A stretch of 64,000 nt of DNA from Escherichia coli (GTDB taxonomy: Bacteria; Pseudomonadota; Gammaproteobacteria; Enterobacterales; Enterobacteriaceae), in the NCBI RefSeq assembly GCF_003334305.1, contig NZ_QOWS01000011.1, one strand, 5' to 3'. Under the pieces are notes generated by a model, which was not told where the DNA came from, ran no database searches, and saw only the letters and a program-made list of their open reading frames with translations. The translations under genes and the position numbers were made by a program. Below, one piece after another: positions 7,742 to 13,030 of this stretch (position 1 is the first letter of the stretch; each line of letters begins with the position of its first letter).

Positions 7742-7786
7742 AACCAGGCTGTTTCTATAACATATGATTTATGGCATATTATTTTC

Positions 7787-8458
7787 ATGAAGATTTTACT
7801 TATTGAAGATAATCAAAGGACCCAGGAGTGGGTAACGCAGGGGCTTTCCGAAGCGGGTTATGTCATCGATGCCGTTTCTGATGGCAGAGATGGGCTTTAT
7901 CTTGCGCTGAAGGATGATTATGCATTGATCATTCTGGATATTATGCTTCCGGGTATGGATGGCTGGCAGATCTTACAAACGTTAAGAACGGCAAAGCAAA
8001 CCCCTGTTATTTGCCTTACTGCAAGGGATTCTGTCGATGACAGAGTCAGAGGGTTGGACAGTGGAGCAAATGATTATCTGGTAAAACCTTTTTCATTTTC
8101 TGAGTTGCTGGCAAGGGTTCGGGCACAATTAAGGCAACATCACGCTTTGAATTCAACATTAGAAATCAGCGGCTTAAGAATGGACTCTGTTAGTCAAAGT
8201 GTGAGCAGGGACAATATCAGTATTACACTGACGCGCAAGGAGTTTCAGTTACTTTGGCTACTGGCCTCCAGAGCAGGCGAAATTATACCCAGAACGGTTA
8301 TTGCGAGTGAAATTTGGGGAATCAACTTTGATAGTGATACCAATACGGTGGACGTCGCCATTCGCAGGCTCCGCGCAAAAGTTGATGATCCTTTTCCTGA
8401 AAAGCTAATCGCCACAATCCGGGGGATGGGCTATTCATTCGTAGCGGTAAAAAAATAA
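7787..8458 (+). CDS. hprR: Two-component response regulator HprR (YedW)
   Basis: OmpR-family receiver and winged-helix domains; start taken at MKILLIEDN (223 aa) inside the longer track ORF. Confidence 0.9.
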   Translation: MKILLIEDNQRTQEWVTQGLSEAGYVIDAVSDGRDGLYLALKDDYALIILDIMLPGMDGWQILQTLRTAKQTPVICLTARDSVDDRVRGLDSGANDYLVKPFSFSELLARVRAQLRQHHALNSTLEISGLRMDSVSQSVSRDNISITLTRKEFQLLWLLASRAGEIIPRTVIASEIWGINFDSDTNTVDVAIRRLRAKVDDPFPEKLIATIRGMGYSFVAVKK

Positions 8459-10775: not shown

Positions 10776-11283
10776 AGTGTATTCCTTATTGTTGCTTAGT
10801 TAGGGTAGTCACTATATTTGCGACTGAGCTGGTCGCTATTTTTAACCAGGCTGGAAAATTGAGTCAATATATCGAAAGCGGTAGTCGGCGGGTGTAAGTA
10901 TGTAATGATGATGCTGCACTGGTGTTGAATATTATTCACGCCAAATTTTCCTTATTGAGTAACGTCGTCGCAAGTGGCCTCAATGATTTTAGACCATTAT
11001 CAGAGGTACGGGGTGGCGGGGAGAGATTTAGTGCTGTGGAATATTGTGGTGCTGATGAATATTTATATCGCGGATTGGTAGAGAAAAAGCTTATTTCATG
11101 CACTATTTTTGCAAATATTTCTATATGGGAAGCGTGTTTGTTACGGATTAATTCATAAAGAAATGCATTTGGGTGTTAGCTTGAAGAGTAGCTGGTTGAT
11201 GTTATTGTGCCAGGAGGGGCAGGGTAAGGTGCTGTATCGATATGCTTCGGCAATTGCGTGTGCCGCAGATGGAGATGAAATGC

Positions 11284-11323
11284 CAATAAAAAAGCCTGAG
11301 TTCGATGAGGGACGAACTCAGGC
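11284..11323 (-). terminator. Intrinsic terminator downstream of the porin gene
   Basis: 11-bp stem GCCTGAGTTCG/CGAACTCAGGC followed by a U-run on the minus strand. Confidence 0.7.
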
Positions 11324-11366
11324 TAGTGTTAAGTTTTACAGTAACACGCCGCAGCGAGTTGGCTGA

Positions 11367-12482
11367 TTAGAACTGGTAGACGATACCAACTGCAAACTGG
11401 TCATCAGCTGCTGCGCCAGTAATGGCGGCGTCATCTTTATCCAGCATGTTGAATTTGTATGCAGTATAAACGTTCATGTTCTTATTAAAGTAGTACCAGG
11501 TACCAACTTCAATGTAGTTCACACGGTCAGCGTCAACATATCTATGTCCAGGTACCCCTTTGATATCTTTACCTTTAGAGTACACATAACCTAAGGACGG
11601 ACGCAGACCAAAGTCGAATTGATACTGAACAACCGCTTCAAAGTTCTGGGTTTCATTGATAAGTTGATCACGCATTATTGTATTGCCTTCTCGATCGGCA
11701 ACACCTGTATCAATAGAACCCGGAGTCATATTACGAGTTTCGCCGTACATTACAGCTGCGTAGACATTGTTCGCGTCATACTTTGCAGCCAATGACCACA
11801 GTTCAGCATTTGAACCGTTTCCATCGGCAACTTGATCGTTGGTGCGATCAGATTTGCTATATGCACCAACGATACCAAAACCATTGATGTTATAGTCTAC
11901 AGACAACGCATAGCCGTCACCATTTTGTTTCTTAGTGCTACGGTTGCTGTTTTTGCCTTGGTACTGAATCGCAAAATCAAGACCATCAACCAGGCCAAAG
12001 AAATCATAGTTACGGTAGGTTGCAACACCGTTGGTACGACCATTCATGAAGTTGTCAGCGGAAGCCCAGGAATCGCCACCCCATTCAACTAACATATCGG
12101 TATAAGCTGCGGCATCATAAGCAACACCGTAGTTACGGCCATAGTCAAATGATCCTAACTCGTTATATTTCAAACCGGCGAAGGTTAAACGGGTTTTTTC
12201 CTGGTTTTCACCTTCGGGCTTGCTGGCGTCGAGGTTGTATTCAAACTGACCAAAACCAGTCAGTTCGCTGGTGATTTGGGTTTCACCTTTAACACCGAAA
12301 CGAGCATAGGAGGTATCTTCGTTTTCGCTGTTATTATCATCAGTATTTGACCAGATGCGTTCGCCAACCATCTTGCCGTAGAAATCAACTTTATTGCCAT
12401 CTTTATTATAAATTTCAGCCGCATTTGCTGCGCCAGCAACTAATAACGCCGGGACCAGCATTGCCAGAACTTTTCTTTTCAT
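11367..12482 (-). CDS. yedS: Intact OmpC/OmpF-family outer-membrane porin at the yedS position
   Basis: 371-aa frame from [21 protein letters not shown] (signal peptide) to a C-terminal F; classical porin motifs; sits where K-12 has the yedS pseudogene. Confidence 0.85.
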
Positions 12483-12796
12483 TATGTATTCCCTTGTGAT
12501 TATAATCTTCATGAATATATCAATAAGTGCCGTTATCCAAAAAAAAGCACATTTGGATACTATTCTATGAAGTTCATTTTATTTTAAGGATTACATGTAA
12601 CAAATGTATTTAAAAGATTTCAAAGTGTTTCTAATATATTTAATATAATTCAGGATTATGAATTCTGAATATAAACATTCATGAAGATTATAAATGTATA
12701 TCAATAAGTTATGAGTTGAACTGAAAGATAGGGAGTATCAATGATCGTTGCGCTAAACGGCTGGTGTGATCACGCGCACATTAATGAAGGCATAAA

Positions 12797-12826
12797 AAAA
12801 AGCCGGCATCATGCCGGCCCAAAAAA
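12797..12826 (-). terminator. Strong intrinsic terminator on the minus strand in the porin-yedR spacer
   Basis: GC-rich hairpin GCCGGCATCATGCCGGC followed by eight U on the minus strand. Confidence 0.7.
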
Positions 12827-12886
12827 TATAAACAAGACGATAAAAGGCTAATAACGGAGGCATCATGACACAGAATAATAAAAAGG
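12797..12886 (-). ncRNA. rseX: Candidate small RNA (about 90 nt) ending at the terminator; position consistent with RseX
   Basis: Possible sigma70 promoter (TTCAAT, 18-nt spacer, TACAAT) about 90 nt upstream of the terminator on the minus strand; RseX placed between yedR and yedS from memory; 5' end not established. Confidence 0.4.
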
Positions 12887-13030
12887 TATAATTGTAATCA
12901 GTGCTAATATATTGATTGAATGAATTAATAAAGCCGATATCAAAGATAAATAAAATCGCTCAAAACGATTTTTCTTGTATTCACTGCCGTTGCGCAAAAA
13001 TTATCTATTTGTTCAAAAAATGATTGAGTC

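Follow-up and report, generated by a model that had tools for sequence, protein, structure and literature searches.

A short repeat on either side of the predicted yedS promoter in Escherichia coli joins an invariant leader sequence and a polymorphic upstream element

The control region of the porin gene yedS carries, in the 64,000-nt stretch of E. coli DNA analysed here (the window), a repeat of which one half is inverted and the other half direct. One copy lies in the predicted 5′ leader and the other upstream of the predicted promoter. We lean, on balance, towards the explanation that the two copies are different elements of the control region of a quiescent porin, which share a young, decaying and E. 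coli-specific similarity, and that they are not a duplicated module. The perfect repeat is a property of this strain's lineage, while the inverted repeat itself is a species-level feature that is perfected here.

Results

The repeat lies in the spacer between rseX and yedS

In the window, yedS (11367-12482, minus strand) is intact and encodes a 371-aa porin of the OmpC/OmpF family, as judged from the open reading frame, Pfam (PF00267, Porin_1) and annotation; in K-12 it is annotated as a pseudogene. Its start codon is the ATG at 12482-12480 on the minus strand, which is also where the RefSeq CDS of strain A7 starts, and it is preceded by the Shine-Dalgarno sequence AAGGGA at 12490-12495, so that the two together occupy 12480-12495. 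On the other side lies rseX (12795-12884, minus strand), the gene of an Hfq-binding sRNA, identified by Rfam (RF01401, 99 bits, E = 9e-14) and by the K-12 annotation. The positions of the yedS ATG and of rseX place the repeat in the 312-nt rseX-yedS spacer. The first-pass annotation had it upstream of a porin gene, and this part of its interpretation stands, the porin being YedS, which is named OmpS1 (gene ompS1) in the literature (PMC2731931).

The gene order of the neighbourhood, dcm-yedJ-drpB-rseX-yedS-hchA (from the open reading frames and the annotation of K-12 and strain A7), is that of an ompS1-type locus. drpB (yedR), yedJ and dcm are on the opposite strand, beyond rseX. A terminator scan finds a strong intrinsic terminator of rseX at 12800-12820, which forms the upstream bound of the yedS control region. 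rseX was the one family that Rfam recognized in the region, with weak hits to STnc430 and RyhB remaining below threshold and being driven by the terminator. The GC content is 21.5% at 12500-12699, and the 461 nt around the repeat are 100% identical to E. coli strain A7. Several features of this locus have been described before: rseX, which adjoins yedS, is repressed by H-NS; a SELEX hit of the LysR regulator PgrR is listed at ‘yedX/yedS’; and the polymorphic yedS-yedR spacer already serves as a host-source marker.

The repeat is not explained by base composition

A repeat search over 12400-12900 returned a perfect 17-nt inverted repeat, 100% complementary between 12500-12516 (TTATAATCTTCATGAAT) and 12677-12693 (ATTCATGAAGATTATAA) with 160 nt between the arms, and a 13-nt exact direct repeat (TATATCAATAAGT) at 12516-12528 and 12697-12709 with a spacing of 181. 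The module had initially been placed at 12497-12528 and 12680-12709, with its first part inverted and its second part direct; these coordinates are essentially right and the arrangement is as described, as are the TTCATGAA core and the TATAAT-like element within it. All four segments are assigned to the minus strand. Read in the yedS sense, the distal inverted-repeat arm (12677-12693) is TTATAATCTTCATGAAT and contains TATAAT at 12687-12692 and the palindromic core TTCATGAA. It is accompanied by the distal direct repeat at 12697-12709. The proximal arm (12500-12516) is ATTCATGAAGATTATAA and ends 4 nt before the Shine-Dalgarno sequence, and the proximal direct repeat (12516-12528) is ACTTATTGATATA. 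A search of the 64-kb window with 0-1 mismatches allowed gave no further occurrence of either motif. In a separate look for the palindrome, a single coincidental match was seen in a coding region (7781-7799), and the other intergenic regions of the window were without it.

The possibility that the similarity is no better than expected for AT-rich DNA was rejected by shuffling. When the 312-nt spacer (12483-12794, 28% GC) was shuffled 1000 times with its dinucleotides preserved, no exact inverted repeat longer than 13 nt arose, compared with the 17 nt observed (0/1000), and an exact direct repeat of at least 13 nt was seen in 3 of the shuffles. In a spacer of the K-12 type the inverted repeat matches at 18 of 19 positions, a level reached in 0 of 400 shuffles, and in one of the A1_181 type the corresponding figure is 1 of 400. 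Pure chance in AT-rich DNA is a remote explanation given the 0/1000, the 0/400 and a gapped alignment score that 0 of 500 shuffles reach (see below), even if the region has only 21-28% GC and the direct repeat alone is not significant in most strains (50 of 400 shuffles for K-12). The inverted repeat is thus non-random in most E. coli lineages, which indicates that some process or selection has kept it species-wide. This, together with the K-12 and A1_181 shuffles, is a point against the explanation that we lean towards.

A wider gapped similarity points to local copying

The similarity between the two copies extends beyond the exact repeats. In a gapped direct alignment, 12655-12709 can be aligned with 12481-12528 with about 41 identities, an 11-nt insertion and a 5-nt deletion. 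For the window, none of 500 and none of 200 shuffles attain this score, nor does any for K-12; for other genera the score is not significant. In the yedS sense, the distal copy reads ACTTATTGATATA, then an 11-nt insertion (CATTTATAATC), then TTCATGAA, TGTTTATATTCA, a 5-nt gap and GAATTCATAAT, and the proximal copy reads ACTTATTGATATA, an 11-nt gap, TTCATGAA, a 1-nt gap, GATTATAATCA, CAAGG and GAATACATAAT. The extended distal segment (12655-12709, minus strand) is therefore composed of the direct-repeat half, the insertion, the TTCATGAA core, a GTTTATATTCA-like stretch, a 5-nt deletion at the place of the Shine-Dalgarno sequence, and GAATTCATAAT. A gapped direct alignment of about 55 nt argues for copying rather than for two independent sites.

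Within the 11-nt insertion of the distal copy stands TTATAATC; its reverse complement, GATTATAA, comes after the TTCATGAA core in the proximal copy. Such a pair is the signature to be expected when template switching extends a palindrome, and it would account for the combination of an inverted and a direct half in the repeat. In each copy, one half looks ancestral in its place (the dyad described below in the distal copy; ATATTCAT..ATTAT in the proximal copy), and simple one-way copying is therefore insufficient. From the gapped alignment and the insertion we infer that the similarity originated by local copying.

The proximal copy is part of a conserved yedS leader

We aligned the last 250 nt before the ATG of yedS orthologues from Escherichia, Citrobacter, Kosakonia, Phytobacter, Enterobacter, Klebsiella, Raoultella and Leclercia. 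Conservation across genera is confined to about 165 nt upstream of the ATG. Within it, four putative OmpR-like boxes with 10-bp phasing (GAAACACTTT GAAATCTTTT AAATACATTT GTTACATGTA; 12592-12631, minus strand) are conserved across genera and recovered by motif scan. The OmpR ChIP-seq motif TGTWACAW (PMC3586657) is found inside these boxes at 12595-12603, and one pair of boxes resembles site C1 of ompC (TTTACATTTTGAAACATCTA). The alignment and a promoter scan point to TAGAATAGTAT (12557-12567, minus strand) as a candidate −10 region of the main, P1-like yedS promoter, and the TAGTAT within it is invariant in 12 taxa. With this candidate −10 region, transcription of yedS is predicted to start at about 12550-12555. 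An alternative core promoter, TTGTTA-16-TAAAAT (12603-12576), was also noticed.

The proximal copy spans approximately the last 45 nt of the predicted leader, 4-46 nt upstream of the Shine-Dalgarno sequence. The 50-mer 12483-12532 is 100% identical in 4827 of 4872 complete E. coli genomes (99%), and the copy is invariant in eight diverse E. coli genomes. Its ATTCAT..ATTAT is conserved across 10 genera, as part of a leader motif just 5′ of the ATG, ATATTCAT..ATTAT(A/G)AT..AAGGGAATA, that is conserved across genera. The proximal copy is therefore under very strong constraint, and translation initiation and/or control by an sRNA is the probable source. The proximal direct repeat is partly made by an Escherichia-specific leader insertion of 6-9 nt, as the alignment of the other genera is gapped at TTATTGAT and E. 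fergusonii has ACTTTATCTATATA. Further upstream in the leader, sequence reading reveals a small potential hairpin, UCCAAA...UUUGGA (12536-12557, minus strand), which is not significant against shuffles and has a T7/T8 length polymorphism in its loop. The fold of the short leader as a whole is likewise not significant against shuffles. Pairing of MicF and RseX with the leader was also considered and set aside, the duplex predictions being no better than those for shuffled targets and thus uninformative.

The distal copy is polymorphic and specific to E. coli

The distal copy is located further upstream, about 125-157 nt from the predicted OmpR-type promoter and start, in sequence that is not alignable between genera. 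The one exception to this lack of upstream conservation is a dyad, CATAAC-N4-TG(A/T)TAT, which is overlapped by the distal direct repeat and stands at the same distance from the ATG in most aligned taxa. In motif scans the dyad (12698-12712) fits a T-N11-A box of the LysR type, and the IHF consensus WATCAANNNNTTR is matched exactly on the plus strand at 12699-12711 (1 hit compared with 0.03 expected); both are candidate sites. The distal copy as such is absent from the other genera in the alignment, and only ~1% of genomes (54-59 of 5426) carry the 43-mer of the distal copy unchanged.

Among the eight diverse E. coli genomes, the distal copy lies within the most variable stretch. A population sample was obtained by a plain-pattern scan of metagenome contigs, which yielded 106 E. 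coli-like spacers with 89 haplotypes. Polymorphism in these contigs is concentrated at 12640-12740. The mean minor-allele frequency is 0.092 for the distal arm and 0.085 and 0.055 for its flanks, and 0.01-0.03 for the leader, the core promoter and the OmpR boxes. At position 12686, 57% of the 106 contigs have T, 37% have A and 5% have C, the state that makes the window's repeat perfect. A perfect 17-nt arm is found in 5 of the 106, and most strains have inverted-repeat matches of 18/19 or fewer. The direct repeat matches at 13/13 positions in 8 contigs and at 12/13 in 80. The distal site on its own forms a perfect palindrome of 16 nt, AATATTCATGAATATT, in 37% of the contigs. No compensatory (two-sided) changes were seen in the eight genomes or the 106 contigs; the proximal arm never varies, and no compensatory variation is therefore possible.

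Some natural lineages have little or nothing of the distal copy. In one variant (L099), the rseX terminator is joined directly to about 12672, with the whole distal copy lost and the promoter and leader kept. In a cryptic Escherichia lineage (L033), the 10-nt palindromic core is all that remains. E. fergusonii is without the inverted repeat and its proximal sequence differs; it also has a second porin gene, the upstream region of which is unrelated. An invariant proximal copy, as opposed to a distal copy that is polymorphic, Escherichia-specific and deletable, indicates that the two are not a conserved duplicated site.

No support for paired OmpR or CpxR sites or for paired promoters

The first-pass annotation had proposed duplicated regulator-binding sites, with OmpR and CpxR as the regulators to be compared, or alternative promoters for the porin, and this part of its interpretation finds no support. 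Neither copy matches TGTWACAW, the phased GTTACA box or the CpxR consensus GTAAA-N5-GTAAA. CpxR has 0 matches in the spacer, and the exact OmpR motif occurs between the copies only, where the OmpR-like boxes lie. The proximal copy agrees with a phased GTTACA box at 12 of 16 positions, and such matches are fewer here than in shuffled sequence.

With respect to promoters, a sigma-70 scan was empty at either copy. The proximal TATAAT lies within the leader, 17 nt from the ATG, and thus cannot be a yedS promoter that leaves the ribosome-binding site in the transcript; alternative promoters can consequently not explain both copies. For the distal copy alone a regulatory role is possible, since its nATAAT is a possible −10 element and its direct repeat overlaps the IHF and LysR consensus sequences. 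It might be that the distal nATAAT (12687-12692) serves as the −10 element of a weak second, P2-like yedS promoter, perhaps aided by CRP, and that its resemblance to the leader is incidental. The ATAAT at 12687-12691 is indeed invariant in the 106 contigs, and a CRP-like site is present at 12765-12780, about 92 bp ahead of the start predicted for this promoter; its spacer varies between conserved half-sites, in the cryptic lineage as well. Multiple ompS1 promoters were reportedly found in Salmonella by Oropeza et al. in 1999. We nevertheless consider such a promoter improbable, as the scan finds no sigma-70-like −35/−10 pair (the best −35 element matches at 3/6 positions) and strains differ in the first base of the hexamer (T, C or G).

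Paired sites around the promoter as the main rival

The main rival to the explanation that we lean towards takes the two copies for twin operators, i.e. composite sites made up of the direct-repeat half and a palindrome, ATTCATGAAT, at about −125 to −157 and +25 to +53. A single oligomeric protein binding both sites, or H-NS/StpA bridging them, would enclose the OmpR-dependent promoter and so prevent expression of the porin. The sites are indeed found upstream and downstream of the predicted start, 177-181 bp apart, a geometry like that of the gal, ara and deo loops and of H-NS silencers that act from upstream and downstream positions. The high AT content of the region and the silencing of the ompS1 orthologue by H-NS/StpA speak in the same direction. 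It would also fit that the inverted repeat is non-random across the species and that 37% of contigs have the 16-nt palindrome at the distal site. In the distal copy, the distance from the direct-repeat half to the palindrome is 11 nt greater than in the proximal copy. This is approximately one helical turn, a shift that is tolerable for composite protein sites and that speaks for twin operators and against the explanation that we lean towards.

On the other hand, the distal copy varies as much as its flanks do, is missing from E. fergusonii and from genera that have the same promoter, and is deleted in the natural variant L099; the flanking geometry is present in this strain, but the two sites are not both conserved. 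No known regulator consensus fits both copies: IHF fits the distal direct-repeat half only, and the Fur-, marbox- and CRP-like matches are weak and confined to the proximal copy. In addition, the palindrome does not recur in the other intergenic regions of the window. We regard twin operators as unlikely. A more specific version is limited to E. coli proper. Here, the paired composite sites with ATTCATGAAT, one upstream and one in the leader, would be clamped by some regulator or by bridging H-NS/StpA and so lock the porin off, and C, T or A at 12686 together with the other distal polymorphisms would tune the tightness of the clamp and add to strain- or host-specific expression. This version we hold to be rather unlikely.

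RNA pairing and DNA inversion

Two further roles would use the inverted arms directly. In the first, the distal arm would pair with the proximal arm in a 17-bp RNA helix beside the ribosome-binding site of a long leader, arising from an upstream start or from read-through of rseX, and would modulate translation or stability. The predicted energy of the arm duplex is −23.2 kcal/mol in the window and −20.3 kcal/mol in the K-12 type; the common distal variants T at 12686 and G at 12682 give G-U wobbles, and a 19-bp helix is possible in 43 of the 106 contigs. However, the terminator of rseX is strong, and no known transcript covers both arms. For the hypothetical long leader, the minimum-free-energy fold omits the helix and scores no better than shuffled sequence (z = −0.97), the common A at 12686 (37%) breaks the pairing with no compensatory change, the Shine-Dalgarno sequence is not covered, and no Rfam family matches. 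Such a helix is highly improbable.

In the second, the 17-nt arms would be recombination sites or terminal repeats of a 160-nt cassette, i.e. of an invertible promoter switch or a small mobile element. Perfect 17-nt inverted repeats do flank a promoter-bearing segment of 160 nt. Nevertheless, 4877 of 4880 E. coli genomes are collinear in one piece (at least 80% of a 461-nt query spanning both arms), and of the 3 that are not, the one examined has an IS1 insertion. No recombinase gene is found among the neighbours hchA, yedS, rseX, drpB, yedJ and dcm. As for a MITE or IS, the flanks ATACAT and TCACAA are not duplicated, the sequence has a median of one place per genome, and the interior is a native promoter conserved across genera. 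At the resolution that assemblies allow, the probability of a switch or mobile element is close to negligible.

Discussion

According to the explanation that we lean towards, the similarity between the two copies would have been born by local copying in the Escherichia lineage, in the form of a patchy direct copy of the leader end. The TTCATGAA palindrome would then have been extended, for instance by template switching, and the repeats would later have become perfect in a minority lineage through two point changes (C at 12686 and T at 12707). The pair would at most offer silencing proteins similar AT-rich, TpA-rich sites on either side of the start. The real cis-elements would be the OmpR-like boxes between the copies and the IHF/LysR-like dyad under the distal direct repeat.

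In Salmonella enterica, the upstream region of ompS1 has been mapped as mediating silencing by H-NS/StpA and counter-silencing by LeuO. The literature on ompS1 describes silencing by H-NS/StpA, derepression by LeuO and binding of OmpR. The two loci are alike in that both encode a porin of the OmpC/OmpF family, yedS being the ompS1 of the literature, and have an AT-rich upstream region. yedS further has candidate OmpR-type boxes (TGTWACAW) before the core promoter and the distal T-N11-A dyad of the LysR type. This likeness is one of general layout, Salmonella loci being absent from those that the genome scan returned and from the top 120 protein hits. The yedS control region is probably orthologous to that of ompS1 and would work in a similar way, and by analogy we infer that the distal region corresponds to the ompS1 region of H-NS/StpA silencing and LeuO counter-silencing. 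In contrast, the repeated module is E. coli-specific and appears in no description of ompS1 that we found, and the sRNA gene rseX is directly upstream of the gene in E. coli, which sets it apart from Salmonella. Our literature search, with the Salmonella ompS1 mapping papers outside its reach, found no published description of the repeated module.

ompC and ompF have tandem OmpR sites (C1-C3 and F1-F4, respectively), upstream IHF sites and sRNA control of the leader. Similarly, the 10-bp-phased OmpR-like boxes of yedS end about 36-40 bp upstream of the predicted start and an IHF consensus is found further upstream; as at ompC, a gene for a porin-regulating sRNA adjoins (micF at ompC, rseX at yedS). 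The leader and spacer of ompC, however, have no homology to those of yedS, and the ompC-micF spacer shares nothing beyond 8-9-mers. yedS also differs from both genes in being silent or a pseudogene in many strains, and the promoter-flanking repeat is without a counterpart at ompC.

The exact reverse-complement half beside the TTCATGAA core, with TTATAATC in the insertion, resembles quasi-palindrome or template-switch mutations. The arms of the module are 160 nt apart, further than in classical quasi-palindromes, and the likeness concerns a proposed origin. Invertons of the fimS type and those of Bacteroides are alike in that short inverted repeats bracket the promoter segment of a surface-protein gene, but differ in that the yedS segment is in no case inverted in ~4880 genomes, has no recombinase nearby and has imperfect arms in most strains.

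The repeat is an ordinary detail, a short repeat in the AT-rich promoter region of a silenced porin, and involves no new mechanism. What the analysis does provide is a constraint map of the spacer, in which constraint falls on the leader with its proximal copy, on the core promoter and on the OmpR-like boxes, and the distal copy is among the free parts. Such a map aids the reading of natural variation and the design of reporter and deletion work. Intact and expressed YedS is said, after work by Warner et al. in 2013, to let carbapenems into the cell. Carbapenem entry via YedS is cited to the same effect in PMC11267920. If true, a silencing clamp would be a neat case of recently evolved cis-regulation, and it would contribute to the strain- or host-specific expression of a porin that affects carbapenem entry.

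Candidate Regulatory Sites in the rseX-yedS Spacer

Upstream of the porin gene yedS, four OmpR-like boxes with 10-bp phasing occupy window positions 12592-12631 and are kept across genera; a 27-nt unit also recurs at 30-nt spacing, as repeat family D1, in the stretch covered by 12592-12631 and 12626-12652. These boxes are probably the true yedS target of OmpR.

Under the direct-repeat part of the distal module copy, cross-taxon alignment delineates a dyad, CATAAC-N4-TG(A/T)TAT (12698-12712), whose distance from the ATG is unchanged in most of the aligned taxa. Read on the plus strand, the dyad is a perfect IHF consensus, TATCAATAAGTTA; it also fits a T-N11-A box of the LysR type. For the LysR regulator PgrR, a SELEX hit has been given under 'yedX/yedS' (PMC5934670).

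The rseX terminator is followed immediately by a CRP-like site, TGTGATCACGCGCACA (12765-12780), with 1 mismatch to TGTGA-N6-TCACA. In E. coli and the cryptic Escherichia lineage L033, the half-sites are constant and the 6-nt spacer is variable, a pattern that would be expected of a genuine CRP site. The same terminator is crossed in antisense by a plus-strand ORF of 36 codons, MIVALNGWCDHAHINEGIKKSRHHAGPKNINKTIKG (12741-12851), which has a good Shine-Dalgarno sequence (AGGGAG) and is overlapped by a weak, sub-threshold match to the Rfam family STnc430 (24.5 bits). Inspection by eye shows that in L033 its reading frame is broken after 7 codons, so the ORF is probably non-coding.

A small hairpin, UCCAAA...UUUGGA, is found on the minus strand (12536-12557) where the yedS leader is predicted to begin, with a T7/T8 length polymorphism in its loop. 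When the short leader is folded computationally, the U-run pairs with the Shine-Dalgarno region; this short-leader fold is no better than those of shuffled sequences.

Elsewhere in the window, the arm (the 17-nt inverted-repeat half of the module) has a sole near-match, GTAAAATCTTCATGAAA (7781-7799, 3 mismatches), and it looks coincidental. It includes ATGAAGAT, possibly the start codon of hprR/yedW, the response-regulator gene that would be expected immediately ahead of the sensor-kinase ORF at 8458.

Variant Junctions at the Distal Copy

In the metagenome contig L099 (PPYE01233149.1), a natural deletion of ~125 nt fuses the T-run of the rseX terminator to TTATATTTAGAATTC; in window coordinates, ~12795 meets ~12672. 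This contig has thereby lost both the distal copy and the CRP-like site, and it retains the OmpR boxes, promoter and leader. In two other metagenome contigs, L114 and L192, an AT-rich foreign coding sequence substitutes for everything upstream of TATAATTTTCATGAAT; judged by eye, the protein it encodes resembles the C-terminal end of proteins of the FabK/nitronate-monooxygenase type. The junction falls where the distal arm has its 5′ end, at the counterpart of window ~12693, and reflects either chimeric assembly or a real rearrangement that broke exactly at the arm.

Divergence and Inactivation of the Porin Gene

Between Escherichia lineages, the porin coding sequence diverges far more than the 412 nt upstream of it: the window's porin (11367-12482) shares 64% amino-acid identity with that of L033 (1501-2556), whereas the upstream stretch shares 87% nucleotide identity, its proximal ~160 nt being nearly identical. 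This disparity suggests that the porin has undergone allelic replacement or diversifying selection, the breakpoint lying close to the start codon. In E. fergusonii (L090, 2863 onward), a second porin gene with an unrelated upstream region directly follows yedS; the equivalent place in E. coli, the yedS-hchA interval (10776-11366, ~590 nt), is without a convincing gene. The 2.1-kb contig L010 (JAIJJM010000575.1), which bears the label 'MAG: Collinsella sp.', encodes a porin 100% identical to the window's YedS, and is almost certainly a wrongly binned E. coli contig.

Insertion elements were found in two strains. In 2015C-3121 (L009), IS1 interrupts the OmpR-like boxes at the counterpart of window ~12613, and the downstream porin gene is intact. 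In A1_181 (L004), yedS itself is truncated by IS2. Inactivating events often strike the yedS locus.
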